A DNA stretch of 64,000 nucleotides, from the IMG/VR virus record IMGVR_UViG_3300044765_000092, positions 94,679 through 158,678 of that record, one strand, 5' to 3'. Of the stretch, positions 36,251-62,464 are shown piece by piece (positions within the stretch are counted from its first letter, which is position 1; each line of letters begins with the position of its first letter). The notes below the pieces were generated by a model. That model saw only the letters and a program-made list of their open reading frames with translations. It was not told the origin of the DNA and did no database searches. The DNA is from a virus (lineage: Duplodnaviria; Heunggongvirae; Uroviricota; Caudoviricetes). Position numbers and translations under genes: made by a program.

Positions 36251-36481
36251 TCATCTCCTTGCTAGCTCGCACCGACGTCTTCGATCTTCGGCTGGTTGCG
36301 CCGACCGGTCGACCTCGAACTCGACACCCACGTTGTTCTGGTTGTTGATCAGCCAGTTGCCGACGGCCTGAAGCATGGTCCGTCCTCGGCCGACGTATGG
36401 CAATCCCGGAGCAGCCGGCTCGTCGACCACGAATTGATCACCCTCCTTGGCGATCTTGAGTTTGCGTTTGCCGTTGGTCAT
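36251..36481 (-). CDS. Small hypothetical protein
   Basis: ATGA-coupled to NAMPT. Confidence 0.65.
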   Translation of the reverse strand: MTNGKRKLKIAKEGDQFVVDEPAAPGLPYVGRGRTMLQAVGNWLINNQNNVGVEFEVDRSAQPAEDRRRRCELARR

Positions 36482-38007
36482 GCGGCAAGCCTTTCCCGGA
36501 TAGCCGACAACCTGGGCTCGTTGTACACGATGCCATTCTTGTAGACGAGCTCGTGCTGGTCTTCGTAGTTGTTGGGCATTGTGCCATCTGTCAAGAAGTC
36601 CCAGACCTTGAGTTCGCCGTTGTCCAGGTTGCGAGCCAGGGTCAGCAGACCGGTACGTGACTTCTTGCCTGGATCAGTGACCGGATCCTTGGATGCACCA
36701 ATCCACACTTCCTGGTCGTCGGCGTAGTGATGTTCGCCGTCGAAGAACGAAGTGCCACGAACAACCCACAGGGCACAGATCTTCTGCGCCCACTTGTAAG
36801 TGTCGCGGTTGACCTTCTGCAGCAGAGCACCACCAGAACCGAACACGAAGTTGTCAGGCGCCCACCCAGCGACCATCATGTTGCCGAGGATCGTCTGGAT
36901 GGCCATCGTGTCGATGCCGTCACCCCACAGCACGCCAACACCTTTGAGCGTGCGATAGTGCTTGGCGTTCTCGGTGTAACCGTAGGCCGAAGCCAGTTTG
37001 GTCATCACCTTGGGAATGATCTCCAGCGGATCGCCACTGTCTGGCCGCAGGACCACCTTGAGCGCGTTTAGGCTCTTGACGTACTCGACCATTTCGGGTG
37101 AGCAGAACACGTCGAGCAGACGCCACATGTCGTAGCCATCGCACACGATGGAACAGATGGTGCCGGGTCGGGCGTTGGCCAGACAGGCCATCAGGTAGTC
37201 CTTGTCGGACTGTGGACCCGTGTTCCCATACTGCATCTGGATCGAGTGCTCCGACGCAAACACCGAGAAGGCCGACATCTCCTCGTTAAAGTAGTGGTTG
37301 GCGTGGACCACTCCCTCCACAGTGTCACTTCCCATGAAGTTGAACGTGTGCCGACTACCGCCGATCTCAGCCTGCTCGCCACAGGTGACGCCGCGACCCC
37401 CAAAGTCGTGTAGTGCAAACGGGAGCATGTCGAGCGAACAGCCGGCGAGTTCGTAGAAGTGCTTGATCTTGAGCTTGGCGTCGTAGTCGTTCGTGGCGAT
37501 CGTCGACGGATACCACGCGGCTCTGAGCGTCGGCGTCTCCATACCAGAGGCCATCCAGTGGAGGTCTGGGTCCGTGCAGGTGACCGTGTACATCGGGTCC
37601 TGGCCCCTGGCCTTGAAGCCGCCGGGCAGCGACCTGATGGTCAGCGGCACGTGTCCGTGGTACGTATTGACCACCTTGTTCCAGGCCTCTTCAGCAAACA
37701 GGGGTCGCCCAAAGTGCTTCTGGGCAAACGCCTTGGCACGGAGGACATCGTCGTTGGTGATGCGCTGCTTCACCAGATACTTTTCACAGAAGTCGTGCAT
37801 ATCGCCGGCGACGATCGTCTGCTGAGGACTGACGCGGGCAGTGCCGTAGGCCGACTGGCCGATGACATTGGGGTTTTGGGCGAACGGGTGACCGAACTTG
37901 TAGCTATCGGTCCGCAGGATCATGCTGAGAATCGGGTCGTCCTTGGCGATGTACGGGACATCGTCGTTGGAAGCGCCTTGGATGAATTGGTCGAGAGTGC
38001 GTGCCAT
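36478..38007 (-). CDS. nadV: Nicotinamide phosphoribosyltransferase (NAMPT)
   Basis: TDSYK, HDFGGRG, SEHS, IVCDGYD, RPDSGDP, WGDG, FGSGGALLQKVNRDT, SKDPVTDPGKKS. Confidence 0.95.
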   Translation of the reverse strand: MARTLDQFIQGASNDDVPYIAKDDPILSMILRTDSYKFGHPFAQNPNVIGQSAYGTARVSPQQTIVAGDMHDFCEKYLVKQRITNDDVLRAKAFAQKHFGRPLFAEEAWNKVVNTYHGHVPLTIRSLPGGFKARGQDPMYTVTCTDPDLHWMASGMETPTLRAAWYPSTIATNDYDAKLKIKHFYELAGCSLDMLPFALHDFGGRGVTCGEQAEIGGSRHTFNFMGSDTVEGVVHANHYFNEEMSAFSVFASEHSIQMQYGNTGPQSDKDYLMACLANARPGTICSIVCDGYDMWRLLDVFCSPEMVEYVKSLNALKVVLRPDSGDPLEIIPKVMTKLASAYGYTENAKHYRTLKGVGVLWGDGIDTMAIQTILGNMMVAGWAPDNFVFGSGGALLQKVNRDTYKWAQKICALWVVRGTSFFDGEHHYADDQEVWIGASKDPVTDPGKKSRTGLLTLARNLDNGELKVWDFLTDGTMPNNYEDQHELVYKNGIVYNEPRLSAIRERLAA

Positions 38008-38058
38008 GATAAGCTCCTTATCGTAGTGGCGGTGTTGAACGGCTGGCCCTTCGTCGGG

Positions 38059-38430
38059 TCAGTCGCGAGAGAATTTGTAGTGACGATCGATGTAGTCGAT
38101 CGGAATGCGCAGTTCCATGGCCAGATTGATTTCGTCGGCCACTCCAGTGGACACAGCGTAACCAGGATATCGGTAAACTATCAGCCGATCGCAACGCCGA
38201 AGCAGGTCACGTGAGTACTCCTTCCAGAAGGGGTAGTCAGCGCCCATCTCGGTGTCAGGAACCTGCTTGAGCACAAAATGGTTAAACAGCGGGCTGACGA
38301 TATGCCATTCTTGGCATTCACCACCTTCGCAGTCTTGGGTGTTTGCATCGCTGATCAACTGCATCAGTTCCTGCATCAGTTCTTCTTTGTTTTCGGCCTT
38401 GCTGTACGGGGCCGCGAGATACACGAGCAT
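38059..38430 (-). CDS. DUF1937 / nucleoside 2-deoxyribosyltransferase-like Rossmann protein
   Basis: MLVYLAAPYS...SPLFNH...LLRRCDRLIV...STGVADEI; AAGGAG RBS. Confidence 0.75.
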   Translation of the reverse strand: MLVYLAAPYSKAENKEELMQELMQLISDANTQDCEGGECQEWHIVSPLFNHFVLKQVPDTEMGADYPFWKEYSRDLLRRCDRLIVYRYPGYAVSTGVADEINLAMELRIPIDYIDRHYKFSRD

Positions 38431-38459
38431 TATTCGCTCCTTCTTTAGGTTTTGTAAGC

Positions 38460-38576
38460 CTACAGTGGCTTGACGCCGTAGACCTTTGGATCGTTGGTCT
38501 CGCGTGGGCGGATCAAGTACAGGTATGAACCTCCGCCCAAAATCCGAGACCAATATGCGTCGTCTGGTATGTCCAT
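38460..38576 (-). CDS. Small ORF (38 aa) below the track cutoff
   Basis: MDIPDDAYWSRILGGGSYLYLIRPRETNDPKVYGVKPL*, with GGAG RBS. Confidence 0.45.
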   Translation of the reverse strand: MDIPDDAYWSRILGGGSYLYLIRPRETNDPKVYGVKPL

Positions 38577-38632
38577 GGGTTACTCCGTGTAGATGGTTCC
38601 GGGTACTACCTTGAACTCGATTCGAGCGCTTT

Positions 38633-38662
38633 CGCTGACGTACATGACGCTGACGTACATGA
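38633..38662. repeat. 15-bp perfect tandem duplication
   Basis: CGCTGACGTACATGA x2. Confidence 0.85.
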
Positions 38663-38663
38663 T

Positions 38664-39887
38664 TCAGTCCTTCAGCTTGCTGACCATCGTCCGCAGGATC
38701 GGATCGTGATCCTCGAACCACTCATCTGGCATAGACAGCGCTCTGGCAATCGGGATCCACTGTGCGTCCAGCGTTTCGACCTCGACACCGCCACCCGGTT
38801 CCCCTTCTGGCACCTTTTGGCCGCTGACCACAGGCAGAGGCTTGGTGTCGTCGAGCTTGAACATGAAGCAGATTGTGAGTGTTCGTCCTCGGTTGCTACG
38901 TTCCGGATCGTCAAAGTATTCCCAGCAGACGACACTACCTCGGAGGATATCCTTGGTGATGTCGAGGGACCGCTTGCCGTCTGCTAGACGGATGCCAGTC
39001 TCTTCGGTGAGTTCTGCCAAAGCAGCTTCAAGCAGTCGCTGCTTGCCCTTGACAAATCCACCAGGGAGAGCCCACAGGCCACGCCCAGGATAATTGTTGC
39101 GTTGGACCGCGAGAATATGCCCAGACTGGACTACCACGCAGTCAACAGTAATGTACTGCGCCTCGTGATCAGGAGCACCAATGAATTGGTGCTTCGCCCG
39201 GTAGTCTTCGATGAACGCCCACTCAGCACACAGATCCTTGTACGAGTTGCGGTCACTGACGTGCAACGTACCGTGGACGTACTCCTGCAAGAACTGCAGA
39301 GTCGTTGGTGGAACATCCAGCCAGTCATCGGTTGCAAGATTCGGCGTCGCAGATGTGAACAGGCGGCGACGTAGGGCTGTGGCGTTTAAGTCCTTGCCAG
39401 CCGGAACCGGCGGTTTGAGTTCGAGCTTCCACCCAGGAAAAGCATGGAGGTACCACGTACTGTGATCGCGGTCACTGCCGACCAAAATGATCTCAGGGTC
39501 GTCCCAGTCCAGCGGGTTATTGGCGTCCTCTTCGACGTTCGATAGGCCAGTGCGAACAGCTTCTTGGACCGATTGGATCCACGCAGTGTCGTTGTACGGA
39601 TGATCTTGAAGTGGAAGTACTGACCACTCTTTCGTGCGAAAGGTGTCGTGCGCAGCAATCCAACGAAGAATCATGTCCTTGCGTTCGTCGAACGTGAACG
39701 GATTCTTGATGTTGCGCGATCTGAAAGATGAGCCCACTAGGATGATGACTGCGTCACCCTTGCGGAAAGCGTGCTGAAGATTCTCGACGTGTCCGTTGTG
39801 CAGGATCTGCATACGTCCAATATAGACGTAGACCTTGGGTCTACGCAGCGTCGGTTTGCTGAGCGTGATGGTCTTGCTGGTTGCCAT
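38664..39887 (-). CDS. nadM: Bifunctional NMN adenylyltransferase / ADP-ribose pyrophosphatase (NadM-Nudix)
   Basis: IGRMQILHNGH (HxGH) N-terminal domain; Nudix box GGFV...AALAELTEETG; RSNRGRT...FEDH. Confidence 0.93.
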   Translation of the reverse strand: MATSKTITLSKPTLRRPKVYVYIGRMQILHNGHVENLQHAFRKGDAVIILVGSSFRSRNIKNPFTFDERKDMILRWIAAHDTFRTKEWSVLPLQDHPYNDTAWIQSVQEAVRTGLSNVEEDANNPLDWDDPEIILVGSDRDHSTWYLHAFPGWKLELKPPVPAGKDLNATALRRRLFTSATPNLATDDWLDVPPTTLQFLQEYVHGTLHVSDRNSYKDLCAEWAFIEDYRAKHQFIGAPDHEAQYITVDCVVVQSGHILAVQRNNYPGRGLWALPGGFVKGKQRLLEAALAELTEETGIRLADGKRSLDITKDILRGSVVCWEYFDDPERSNRGRTLTICFMFKLDDTKPLPVVSGQKVPEGEPGGGVEVETLDAQWIPIARALSMPDEWFEDHDPILRTMVSKLKD

Positions 39888-39970
39888 GATAGCTCCTATC
39901 GTTGGCGGGTTAAAGGTGTAGAGCACTTCGGCGTGCCCTACACTGGTCATTTACAGTTCGTGGTGTGTGG

Positions 39971-47967: not shown

Positions 47968-48264
47968 CTAATGTACTGAAATGAGTTTCCTCGCAACCTG
48001 CTGAAGCAGATCGTCAAAGGTAGTCGCCTGATTTATCGAAAGGTCCAGATCACAACCCGGGAAGACATGTGAGAGAGCTGCGCACAACTCTCTGAGATCT
48101 CTTTCCGAGAACCCAAAGTGTTGCGACAGCGAATCTGCGTACATCACTTCTTGAGCTAGATCACCTGATGCCATCCCCGCTAAGGCCGAGCGTACTTCGT
48201 ACTCGATCCGTGACAATCTGAGTGTCCCGTCGTCGTCAGATCCGTCTGTCGCAGCCACGATCAC
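47968..48264 (-). CDS. Acyl carrier protein-like protein with Glu at the phosphopantetheine Ser position
   Basis: EVMYADSLSQHFGFSERDLRELCAALSHVF aligns without gaps to E. coli AcpP [30 protein letters not shown]; C-terminal TTFDDLL resembles TTVQAAI. Confidence 0.55.
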   Translation of the reverse strand: MIVAATDGSDDDGTLRLSRIEYEVRSALAGMASGDLAQEVMYADSLSQHFGFSERDLRELCAALSHVFPGCDLDLSINQATTFDDLLQQVARKLISVH

Positions 48265-48693
48265 TTACTTGGACCTCCGGGCCTTCATCTGGACGACTTG
48301 GTGTTGCTTCTGTTCGTCTGGCGCGGGTAGGGCCAGTGGTGGCTGAACCTCGGCCGGCGGCTGCTGCGGCAGGGCCTTCTTGTCGGTAGTACGACGAATC
48401 GGTTTCTTGGCCGCCATACGCTTGGCGAACTTGGTCCATGCTTCGGGGTCATTTGCGACCTTCTCCGCGAGCTCCCACAGATCGGGCGGCACAAAGGCTT
48501 TGATGACCGCGTCCTTGGCTGCGGACACAGCACTGCCGTGGGTCGTCGTATCGTAGTGGAAGCGCAGCGTCGGATGTTGGCGCGGCACCGGCTGCATGAG
48601 CATGGCGAGGGCAAACAAATGCTCCTCGTTCGTCGGGTCGAACGCCACCGCTGTGTGCGTTCGCAAGCTCTTGGACAACGAGTTTCCGTTCAT
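48265..48693 (-). CDS. Hypothetical protein
   Basis: AGGAG-like RBS; Pro/Gln-rich tail. Confidence 0.7.
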   Translation of the reverse strand: MNGNSLSKSLRTHTAVAFDPTNEEHLFALAMLMQPVPRQHPTLRFHYDTTTHGSAVSAAKDAVIKAFVPPDLWELAEKVANDPEAWTKFAKRMAAKKPIRRTTDKKALPQQPPAEVQPPLALPAPDEQKQHQVVQMKARRSK

Positions 48694-58882: not shown

Positions 58883-60016
58883 TCAGACCACGACGTTGTG
58901 TGTGCGCTGAGCGATCTCGCGAAGCACAGCCGACTGGCTGCCATCAACCGGGATCACTTCCGGGTAATAGGGCTTGAGCAGCTTCACGCCGTTCTGCGCC
59001 CATCGAGTGAGGACCAACACCAGATCGAACTTGCCGAGGTGGTCGAGACCGTGCGTCTGCTTCGACACCACGATCTCGGCGTTGGGGCAACGACGCTGGT
59101 ATTCAACCAGATGACTGTCCAAAGCGCCGTAGATCAGGATGCGAGGGCGTGCCTTGTTGTGGCTTTGCGGGTGTTGACTCTGTTGGTGTTCCAGCATCTG
59201 GGCCTTGTCCTCGGGTGTTGCCGAGGGCCCGGTCCAGAACTCGAACAGCTCCTTGCGGTGATGGTCGAGCATCGCCGCCACTCGCTTCTCGCTGGCTTCC
59301 AGCATCGAACCGATGCGCTCCAACAACGTCACGTGAGCGGTCGACAGTTCGTGCTGCACGATGTGCTTGACCACCAGATCGATAGTGGTCTTGGCCCCTT
59401 CGACCTTGAACGCAGCAAGCGGATCCTCGATCTCGACCGGCTTAGGTGCCGGAACCTTGATGGCAGGCGGCAGGTTGTGGACCGCGCGCTGAGTCGGGAA
59501 CGAATAGTCAACCTTGGCTGGGACCTTTGGTGTCGGGGGCACGACTGCTACTGGCGCGGGCTCGGATTCCGACTTGGTCCCGAACATTCCACCGGCGGCA
59601 CGCACAGCGGACGGAAGTTTGATCGCTGCTTTGACGGTCCCCGACGGGGCTGCCTTTGACGTGGTCGTTGTCGACGCCGCCTGTGCTGCGGCCAGCGCCT
59701 CGACTTCGGCTGTCGTCTCGGCGATAGCGTTCATCACCTCGCTCGACGGGATGGTCTTGATCAGCTCGATCAGAGAGTGATGCATGTGATGGATGGAGCA
59801 CGGATTGTTGACCCGACGGCGCCGGTCCGCGTTGAGGACGAGCATGGCAGCTTCGAGCTCGACCTTGCGCCGAGACTTGCTGCCCTCGAATGCGTTGGAT
59901 GCGAGAACTACGCTGTAGCGCAGCGCCACCGATCGCCACTCGTTGGGCTTCCAGATGACACGACCATCGGTCGTCGATTGGGGGTTGTTGGGCATCAAGG
60001 TCTGTGCATTGTTCAT
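58883..60016 (-). CDS. Hypothetical protein with a P/A-rich linker
   Basis: 377 aa; GAGGA RBS; C-terminal Rossmann-like RILIYGAL...FDLVLVLTRW. Confidence 0.75.
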   Translation of the reverse strand: MNNAQTLMPNNPQSTTDGRVIWKPNEWRSVALRYSVVLASNAFEGSKSRRKVELEAAMLVLNADRRRRVNNPCSIHHMHHSLIELIKTIPSSEVMNAIAETTAEVEALAAAQAASTTTTSKAAPSGTVKAAIKLPSAVRAAGGMFGTKSESEPAPVAVVPPTPKVPAKVDYSFPTQRAVHNLPPAIKVPAPKPVEIEDPLAAFKVEGAKTTIDLVVKHIVQHELSTAHVTLLERIGSMLEASEKRVAAMLDHHRKELFEFWTGPSATPEDKAQMLEHQQSQHPQSHNKARPRILIYGALDSHLVEYQRRCPNAEIVVSKQTHGLDHLGKFDLVLVLTRWAQNGVKLLKPYYPEVIPVDGSQSAVLREIAQRTHNVVV

Positions 60017-61458: not shown

Positions 61459-62088
61459 TTACCGTTTGCGACGGTTCGGATCAACGCCCGACCGCAGGAT
61501 CAACGCGACGAGTTGGCCGACGGTCAGCACACCAGACCAGTCATCCTGGTTGATGTCAAACTCAAATCCAGTCTGCGTCAAGAGCCGCAGTTCCTCCATG
61601 TCGTGTTCGTCGGCGCCCAGATCGTGGAACGTGGTCATCAGCGTGACCGACACCTTGGAGTCGAGAACTGTTTGGATCAGTTCCTGGACGCGAGCAAGCG
61701 CCACGTTCTGCTTGTCGATCGGGAAATCAGGGTCGAGTATCAGGCTTTGCACCGACTCGTGATTCTCGACCCGTACTTGATTGCGGAACGCAGCGGTCAC
61801 CGTGTAGAACACGATCGGCTCATGCTCGGTAGTGGCCGAGAACTGACCGTTGCCGGTTCGGCTGTCGAACCGCAGCTGAAGGTACTTGGTACGATCGTCC
61901 TCCATCCAGGCTGAGGGGTTGCTGTTACGGAACTCCAGGACGGCCATCACGATCTCGAACGGCAACCACACGGGTGTGGCGGACACCTGAAGTACATCCT
62001 TCACGTATCGGTTTCGCTCTTGCGGACGAAACGTTGTCACGGGATTCATTTCATCTCCTGTCCAGATTCGCATTTCCAATGCCTTCAT
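61459..62088 (-). CDS. Two-domain protein with a C-terminal acyl carrier protein-like domain (DLGADEHD, Ser replaced by Glu)
   Basis: LARVQELIQTVLDSKVSVTLMTTFHDLGADEHDMEEL...FEFDINQDDWSGVLTVGQLVALI aligns along the length of AcpP. Confidence 0.8.
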   Translation of the reverse strand: MKALEMRIWTGDEMNPVTTFRPQERNRYVKDVLQVSATPVWLPFEIVMAVLEFRNSNPSAWMEDDRTKYLQLRFDSRTGNGQFSATTEHEPIVFYTVTAAFRNQVRVENHESVQSLILDPDFPIDKQNVALARVQELIQTVLDSKVSVTLMTTFHDLGADEHDMEELRLLTQTGFEFDINQDDWSGVLTVGQLVALILRSGVDPNRRKR

Positions 62089-62200: not shown

Positions 62201-62464
62201 TCACGGCCTGTTATTGGTCTTGTCCTTCTTGATCCGAGCTTCGCGCTCGAGAATGGCCCTCCACGCTTTTAGCGGTGGCCACAGGATGATGGCGCTGAGG
62301 ACTGCGAACATGATCCACATGATCAGCAATCCTTTGTGAACATTGAACATGGCGATGGCGAACCCCAGAAACAGGAGCATGCCAACCACGTAGAGTACCA
62401 GCGCGACGACCGGCACTCCACCCATGAACACTTGCTTCAACTCTTCTTTGGTGATGATCCGCAT
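62201..62464 (-). CDS. Two-TM membrane protein
   Basis: Hydrophobic helices; GAGGAG RBS. Confidence 0.7.
   Translation of the reverse strand: MRIITKEELKQVFMGGVPVVALVLYVVGMLLFLGFAIAMFNVHKGLLIMWIMFAVLSAIILWPPLKAWRAILEREARIKKDKTNNRP

Follow-up and report, generated by a model that had tools for sequence, protein, structure and literature searches.

Acyl carrier proteins (ACPs) are among the most connected proteins of bacteria. AcpP of Escherichia coli and AcpA of Bacillus subtilis, which serve type II fatty-acid synthase and belong to family PF00550, have an acidic isoelectric point (pI) and a four-helix fold, in which a DLGAD turn precedes the phosphopantetheine-bearing serine (Ser36 in AcpP) and helix II carries the docking residues D35, D38 and E41. 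Here we describe a phage gene, copy 2, whose product resembles these proteins in fold, turn, pI and the equivalents of D35, D38 and E41, but has glutamate in place of Ser36 and histidine in place of Leu37, has lost the E47–E49 patch, is not matched by the Pfam model and carries its ACP domain behind a 120-residue foreign domain. Copy 2 lies at positions 61459–62088, on the minus strand, of a 64,000-nucleotide stretch of DNA (the window), which corresponds to bases 94679–158678 of a 238,018-bp IMG/VR virus record (IMGVR_UViG_3300044765_000092) estimated to be 99% complete. It encodes a two-domain protein of 209 residues, and is so named to distinguish it from copy 1, another ACP-like gene of the window. 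We put at roughly one half the probability that copy 2 is a non-carrier adaptor or binding protein, in which a small phage domain is joined to an ACP domain that came from a Ser-bearing phage ACP and was taken over as a binding module.

The C-terminal domain comprises residues 120–204 (61477–61731, minus strand) and has a pI of ∼4.3. A phmmer search of the PDB returned only ACPs, the best of which (E-value 0.01) aligns with residues 131–199 and places the glutamate on the serine of DLGADSLD. PHROG 5934, "acyl carrier protein", matches copy 2 with E-values of 1e-5 and 4e-7, and a hidden Markov model (HMM) of nine viral ACPs scores it at 36 bits. The Pfam PP-binding family PF00550 gave no match to copy 2 at E ≤ 1; in a six-frame search of the genome, its only match was a 356-residue protein encoded outside the window (see below). 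Among 1.84 billion representative proteins, the sole match of the C-terminal half is P0005, a Ser-bearing ACP of 78 residues (E-value 5e-5), which is 38% identical to the domain over 72 residues in a pairwise comparison (E-value 8e-14). The AlphaFold2 model of the whole protein (mean predicted local distance difference test score, pLDDT, of 76.6) has helices at residues 124–142, 161–175, 181–185 and 190–199. A Foldseek comparison with AcpP, suggested by an earlier first-pass annotation of this DNA, matched residues 120–204 to solved ACPs with a target-normalised template modelling (TM) score of 0.82–0.88 and a root-mean-square deviation of ∼1 Å over 70–72 residues. Complexes of E. coli AcpP with LpxD, FabZ, FabD, BioI and MukB are among the targets; sequence identity to the E. 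coli AcpP chains is 28–30%. VIA-align against 48,161 chains gave a highest Z-score of 13.5, with carrier proteins in each of the 50 best rows. Sequence and model together indicate that the C-terminal half is a true ACP fold, and the first-pass annotation, which had proposed a C-terminal ACP-like domain reading DLGADEHD with a GAA codon at the serine position, is confirmed on this point by the PDB, PHROG, P0005 and Foldseek/VIA-align matches.

The GAA codon (61606–61608, minus strand) encodes Glu161 of the motif D156-L-G-A-D-E161-H-D163. Glu161 holds the Ser column in the HMMER, MAFFT and structural alignments and is the first helical residue of helix II in the model, where Ser36 sits in AcpP. 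The surrounding stretch (T-T-F-H-D-L-G-A-D-E-H-D-M-E-E-L) contains no serine. Glu161 is not an error, since GAA is at least two base changes from every serine codon and three independent assemblies agree on the residue, the gene being intact in each. The protein is identical in the 238-kb JGI contig and in an 82.5-kb Logan contig, and the version in a 1.8-kb JGI contig has a single difference, Q181P. As the priming serine is replaced by glutamate, the canonical site is predicted to accept neither 4′-phosphopantetheine nor an acyl chain. Judged by the position of Glu161 in the alignments, the earlier view of the domain as not loadable therefore appears correct for the canonical site.

The surface by which ACPs dock to their partners is kept in part. 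D160, D163 and E166 are the equivalents of D35, D38 and E41, and E165 is also present, whereas Q172, T173 and G174 take the places of E47–E49, Arg168 is found at the equivalent of position 43 and His162 at that of Leu37. These residues bear on a tentative alternative, which we consider possible but doubtful, that copy 2 is a decoy of host ACP. The glutamate domain would imitate holo-ACP, or a non-primable apo-ACP, and titrate or block AcpS, the Fab and Lpx enzymes, PlsB, SpoT or MukB, reprogramming lipid synthesis or stress signalling in infection. An ACP fold that retains D160, D163, E166 and the DLGAD turn would suit such a role, as would the strong over-representation of glutamate and aspartate at the serine site of other Ser-less ACPs (see below), and Keating, Carey and Cronan (1995) are reported to have found that apo-ACP, when overproduced, is toxic to E. 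coli and acts as an inhibitor of glycerol-3-phosphate acyltransferase. However, half of the recognition helix is gone, the identity to AcpP is low, and the 356-residue protein of the same genome, with its near-canonical DSLDTVELVMAYEEAF, resembles the docking helix of host ACP far more closely than copy 2 does. Additionally, other Ser-less families accept proline, alanine and glycine at the site, and the same substitution occurs on bacterial chromosomes, where a self-directed decoy is less obvious. The half-lost docking helix and the closer look-alike weaken the case for a faithful decoy of fatty-acid and lipid A enzymes and leave room for a narrower target. The initial idea of copy 2 as a mimic of host ACP thus finds no support as far as a faithful mimic is concerned, the docking helix being preserved in its N-terminal half only.

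The relatives of the ACP domain suggest how the glutamate arose. Copy 2 groups as the sister of the Ser-bearing P0005 (support 98/95) in a maximum-likelihood tree built from 22 ACP-type domains of viruses, and is separate from a clade of marine Ser-less ACPs (97/92). Used as a query in the phage genome, P0005 matches copy 2 with an E-value of 1e-10, compared to 5e-4 for the canonical 356-residue fusion. Because P0005, the nearest relative, carries serine, the change from serine to glutamate is derived in the copy 2 lineage, as is that from leucine to histidine; despite the loss of serine, conservation extends over the DLGAD turn and the first half of helix II. P0005 represents a type of stand-alone ACP (ELGADSLDMQEL) found in phage-like metagenomic contigs and, although it is the closest sequence relative of the domain, it differs from copy 2 in keeping the serine, in being unfused and in being translationally coupled to a gene for a protein of 197–214 residues. 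In its contigs (L008–L011), the P0005 gene overlaps the start of this conserved gene and lies near an AAA_23-type ATPase. A search of the present phage for relatives of the P0005 neighbour genes found none.

ACP-type genes are present in all three cultured relatives of the phage. phiRSL1 and PhiXhv-16 each have one Ser-bearing stand-alone ACP. BcepSaruman, a distantly related jumbo phage with a topoisomerase II 41% identical to that of the present phage, has four ACP-type matches (MK552140.1: 223155–223688, which is gp347; ∼69.0–69.2 kb; ∼251.7–252.1 kb), and all of its ACP-type modules are annotated as hypothetical. One open reading frame of 113 residues has aspartate on the Ser column, and another of 644 residues has two ACP-like matches, apparently in tandem, with G-W-D-S-M-D retained in one of them. 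The hypothetical protein gp347 (QBX06760.1, 177 residues), of which BcepSauron has a 91% identical copy, resembles copy 2 in layout: a Ser-less C-terminal ACP-like domain, reading G-L-D-E-H-D and so with the same D-E-H-D at the start of helix II, follows an N-terminal part of no known function. This N-terminal part is unrelated to the WLP...KY..FDSRTG domain of copy 2 in a search that had no positive control. In a single BLASTP comparison, copy 2 and gp347 are 26% identical over 113 residues (E-value 4e-6). We considered gp347 as an orthologue of copy 2, which is not established: its 31 bits do not exceed what generic ACPs reach, and in the tree gp347 falls not beside copy 2 but with copy 1, probably by long-branch attraction. 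Common descent of the D-E-H-D form in the two proteins is possible, as far as their sequences tell.

The D-E-H-D motif would also be the core of a different explanation, that the start of helix II in copy 2 and gp347 binds a metal ion or a small ligand and functions apart from ACP docking. All four residues are of kinds that typically coordinate metals, and two jumbo phages that are distantly related both have histidine where D-S-L-D has its conserved leucine, in each case in a Ser-less domain at the C-terminus of a fusion. We regard this ligand site as very improbable, given that it relies on two sequences only, which the tree does not unite, and that other Ser-less families have phenylalanine or leucine at the histidine position.

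Three motif scans, which detect a protein only where the rest of the motif is intact, were used to ask how often, and with what residue, the serine is lost. The first, of IMG/VR with D-[LF]-G-A-D-x-x-D-x-x-E-[LF] and any residue at x, gave at least 116 matches, with serine in at least 86 among the matches listed. ACP-like proteins without the serine number 11 among the matches listed (Glu 6, Pro 3, Ala 1, Asp 1). Set aside were 10 glutamate matches among those listed, which belong to an unrelated ParB/methylase-like protein, and 9 more non-Ser matches in other non-ACP contexts. The former read D-F-G-A-D-E-L-D-A-W-E-F in a ParB/DNA-methylase-like viral fusion (ten loci) and are a chance look-alike. 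The second scan, exhaustive for IMG/VR with x limited to codons starting with G, gave 33 matches, all ACP-like and most from one low-GC marine family of 71–78-residue proteins; glutamate was found in 20, aspartate in 10, alanine in 3 and glycine or valine in none, so that 30/33 are acidic. The third covered 185,579 bacterial and archaeal genomes, again for G-starting codons, with the motif masked and the flanks scored by an HMM of nine Ser-bearing viral ACPs. Among its 115 matches, 54 are ACP-like and 47 of these are acidic (Glu 33, Asp 14, Ala 4, Gly 3, Val 0), compared to 19 of the 61 chance contexts, where the residues show an even distribution (Ala 15, Gly 14, Val 13, Glu 10, Asp 9). For an acidic residue in ACP-like versus chance contexts, the odds ratio is 14.8 (p = 7e-10), with rows that are not independent. 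Clustered at 70% identity, the viral and bacterial Ser-less domains form 39 clusters, of which 32 have an acidic majority residue (Glu 19, Asp 13), the others having Ala (4) or Gly (3).

The acidic preference at the serine site is thus real, recurrent and not phage-specific. Its recurrence in many lineages and the non-random choice of residues, both read from sequence, argue for a retained function and not for decay. A full-text search of the literature brought up no paper that deals with phage ACPs lacking the serine or carrying glutamate in its place. In the survey of serine-to-glutamate changes, which the first-pass annotation had put forward as a check, the residue of Ser-less ACPs is non-randomly acidic, and serine is present in most of the matches listed in the first scan. 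The suggestion that glutamate imitates the charge of the phosphodiester agrees with the non-random acidic residue (30/33 and 47/54 versus 19/61), but specific mimicry finds no support, given the proline, alanine and glycine variants that occur at this site within otherwise near-identical families. Glutamate, aspartate, proline, alanine and serine are generally favoured in the first turn of helices, according to helix-capping statistics. As Ser36 is the first residue of helix II, the observed spectrum of Glu, Asp, Pro and Ala fits these preferences; helix capping explains the acidic residue as well as phosphate mimicry does, and the data do not separate the two.

The low-GC marine family consists of Ser-less ACPs of 71–78 residues that read DLGAD[E/D/A/P]FD and score 40 bits against PF00550, above the Pfam cut-off. 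In the contig examined (L073:2612–10526; syntenic in L024, L036, L063, L106 and L124), the gene lies between a GH108 endolysin and Rz-type spanins, and DnaJ, peptide deformylase, a ClpB-like ATPase and PhoH are also nearby. Like copy 2, these proteins have the serine replaced, mostly by glutamate or aspartate, with the rest of the motif intact; unlike copy 2, they are stand-alone, belong to a lysis cassette, form a separate clade and have FD instead of HD after the site. Copy 2, as a 209-residue fusion with unannotated neighbours and the motif DLGADEHD, falls outside this family. Bacterial Ser-less ACP-like domains were found in Nostoc and other cyanobacteria, Gemmiger/Subdoligranulum, Streptomyces and Bacteroidales (loci between L164 and L278), and their occurrence in Nostoc, Gemmiger/Subdoligranulum, Streptomyces and others shows that the substitution is not peculiar to phages. 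In one Nostoc sp. (L182:3784–4509), the Ser-less domain is again C-terminal, in a fusion of 241 residues (PF00550, 27.7 bits). Two further loci (L221 and L254) resemble an enterobacterial-type AcpP with glutamate at the serine site and may be contamination or an artefact.

The N-terminal domain of copy 2 spans residues 27–122 (61723–62010, minus strand), with a conserved core at residues 33–106. In a phmmer search of the 1.84 billion representatives, this core matches three small proteins only, which make up a rare family (P0002–P0004; 74–99 residues; E-values 1e-7 to 4e-5) and with which it shares all 12 invariant columns, including W-L-P, P..W, K-Y and F-D.R.G. The contigs of these homologues (L005–L007) are short and have a phage-like layout of small same-strand open reading frames without Pfam families; none of them has an ACP-like neighbour. 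Patterns derived from the profile found no relative of the domain in IMG/VR, and a search of the three related cultured jumbo phages, which had no positive control, also found none. Modelled alone, the domain reaches a pLDDT of 84.5 with the order β-β-α-α-β-β-β-α. No convincing structural relative was detected (best Z-score of 3.9 with VIA against the PDB; E > 0.25 in BFVD; TM ≤ 0.40 in the ESM Atlas), and another ESM Atlas comparison gave TM ∼0.5 to assorted families; a failure to match does not prove a new fold. Since the domain is homologous to stand-alone proteins of 74–99 residues, the copy 2 protein is a modular fusion that combines an autonomous phage domain with a degenerate ACP domain.

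The modular layout raises the alternative that the ACP-like domain is a structural remnant, that is, a stable acidic solubilising or spacer domain for an N-terminal effector, with no binding specificity of its own and with a glutamate that merely stabilises the start of helix II. The range of Glu, Asp, Pro, Ala and Gly at the site would be expected from first-turn helix preferences, and an N-terminal domain that stands alone in other phage-like contigs, together with a fusion unique to this lineage, is compatible with a mere appendage. We judge a remnant to be unlikely, in view of the retention of the DLGAD turn, D163 and E166-L167, which are dispensable for folding alone in many carrier proteins, and of the persistence of stand-alone Ser-less ACPs in many phages and bacteria, by which the fold itself appears useful.

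Two other ACP-type modules are found in the same genome. Copy 1 (47968–48264, minus strand) encodes a 98-residue protein, probably of ACP fold, with the motif F-G-F-S-E-R-D and Glu54 encoded at 48103–48105. It has no Pfam or PHROG ACP match, its sole PDB match is an ACP with an E-value of 0.87, and it scores 0.8 bits against the nine-sequence ACP HMM; the sequence evidence is weak. The model of copy 1 in the ESM Atlas itself matches PP-binding domains with TM of 0.71–0.75, and the best Atlas feature match (0.93) is a cluster with PF00550 in 18% of its members. Glu54 falls on the Ser column in all alignments (HMMER, MAFFT). An alternative register at an upstream A-D-S-L was chosen by no alignment. 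No homologue of copy 1 besides itself was found in 5.8 billion proteins. The GTG start of copy 1 directly follows the stop of a 142-residue open reading frame of no known function (48265–48693, minus strand), and translational coupling is possible.

The third module is the C-terminal domain of the 356-residue protein (genome ∼197.7–198.8 kb, minus strand; L003:1396–2466), a canonical ACP domain (DLGADSLDTVELVMAYEEAF; PF00550, 30 bits) that follows an N-terminal domain without known function and a poly-Asp linker. The architecture is that of copy 2, an N-terminal domain of no known function before a C-terminal ACP domain, but the 356-residue protein keeps DLGADSLDTVEL, has an acidic helix II and the poly-Asp linker, and is not significantly similar to copy 2 outside the motif. 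A fourth ACP-like match found by tblastn, at genome positions 223316–223456, contains stop codons and is spurious. From their sequences, the phage genome appears to hold one loadable and two non-loadable ACP-type modules. We found no similarity between copies 1 and 2 by BLASTP or phmmer, and no support for paralogy of the two. The first-pass annotation was right that two divergent ACP-like domains 13 kb apart have glutamate at the serine site, with much weaker sequence evidence for copy 1, but its idea of a two-copy system finds no support: the two lack detectable similarity, a distance of 13 kb separates them, their contexts are unrelated, and in the tree copy 2 shares its branch with a Ser-bearing ACP.

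The source is a new jumbo phage, whose host is probably a soil proteobacterium. Its topoisomerase is only ∼41% identical to those of the cultured Xanthomonas PhiXhv phages, Burkholderia BcepSaruman/BcepSauron and Ralstonia phiRSL1, from which we conclude that it is new. The GC content is 54.7%, the minus strand holds nearly all long reading frames of the window, and the genes include ribonucleotide reductase and both subunits of a type II topoisomerase. At 36478–39950 (minus strand), a nicotinamide phosphoribosyltransferase adjoins a cytidylyltransferase/Nudix protein, resembling a phage NAD+ salvage pair. A megablast search of phages with 24 kb of the window gave no match, and neither did a search of phages with the neighbouring gene at 58883–60016. 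The copy 2 frame is open throughout and starts with an ATG at 62088, preceded at 6 nt by a GGGAG-type ribosome-binding site. An alternative start at Met14 (62047–62049, minus strand), with AGGAG 5 nt upstream, gives a 196-residue form and is the start used by other gene callers or in another assembly. The neighbours on the minus strand encode a protein of 87 residues upstream and proteins of 152, 94, 151 and 377 residues downstream. The 87-residue protein directly upstream (62201–62464, minus strand) has two hydrophobic or transmembrane segments and weak, non-significant matches only (a holin family at E-value 0.033; PHROG 6214 at 0.0045). A scan for promoters and terminators near copy 2 gave no signal above the shuffled expectation.

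Returning to the reading of copy 2 as a non-carrier adaptor, Glu161 would cap helix II and keep a negative charge at its N-terminus, and the patch D160-E161-x-D163-x-E165-E166, together with the DLGAD turn, would form a contact surface for a basic partner. This partner may come from the host, as a protein that recognises ACP-like surfaces, or from the phage itself, and the N-terminal domain would add a second, independent interaction. No phosphopantetheinyl transferase (PF01648), AMP-binding enzyme or ketosynthase was found encoded by this phage, which we count in favour of a non-carrier role, as we do the Ser-less domain of BcepSaruman gp347 with its identical D-E-H-D. Several points weigh against this reading. 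Two ACPs were part of the alignment behind the AlphaFold2 model and bias the fold call to some extent, although ACPs are already found by sequence searches on their own. Acidic residues have been lost from the C-terminal half of helix II, and the predicted surface of copy 2 differs from the one used by known ACP partners. No homologue of the full-length fusion was found in cultured phages (by tblastn), in IMG/VR, in a word-indexed search of 5.8 billion proteins or in an exhaustive search of 1.84 billion representatives, and thus selection on this particular gene is not measurable; a query with the C-terminal domain alone for shorter proteins gave no candidate. The genes around copy 2 lack Pfam and PHROG assignments.

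A broader and more speculative idea, which we think improbable, is that the Ser-to-Glu/Asp look-alikes are an unrecognised and widespread class of constitutive "charged-but-empty" ACP mimics that regulate or sequester sensors of the ACP state in phages and bacteria. Copy 2 would then tether such a mimic to a phage effector domain and deliver the effector to the ACP-binding machinery of the host.

For the study of these proteins, the Ser-bearing P0005 and the Glu-bearing copy 2 provide a natural comparison for the effect of the substitution, and the related protein of BcepSaruman, a cultured phage, is an experimentally tractable stand-in. If the domain were only a scaffold, the lesson would be one for annotation, that "acyl carrier protein" labels on phage genes need a check for the serine. 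Copy 2 adds a fusion that is unique, with a phage domain that elsewhere stands alone, and its genome adds what appear to be loadable and non-loadable ACP-type modules side by side. That many phages and bacteria retain ACP copies predicted to be permanently non-loadable, with a preferred acidic residue at the loading site, points to a non-biosynthetic use of the ACP surface.

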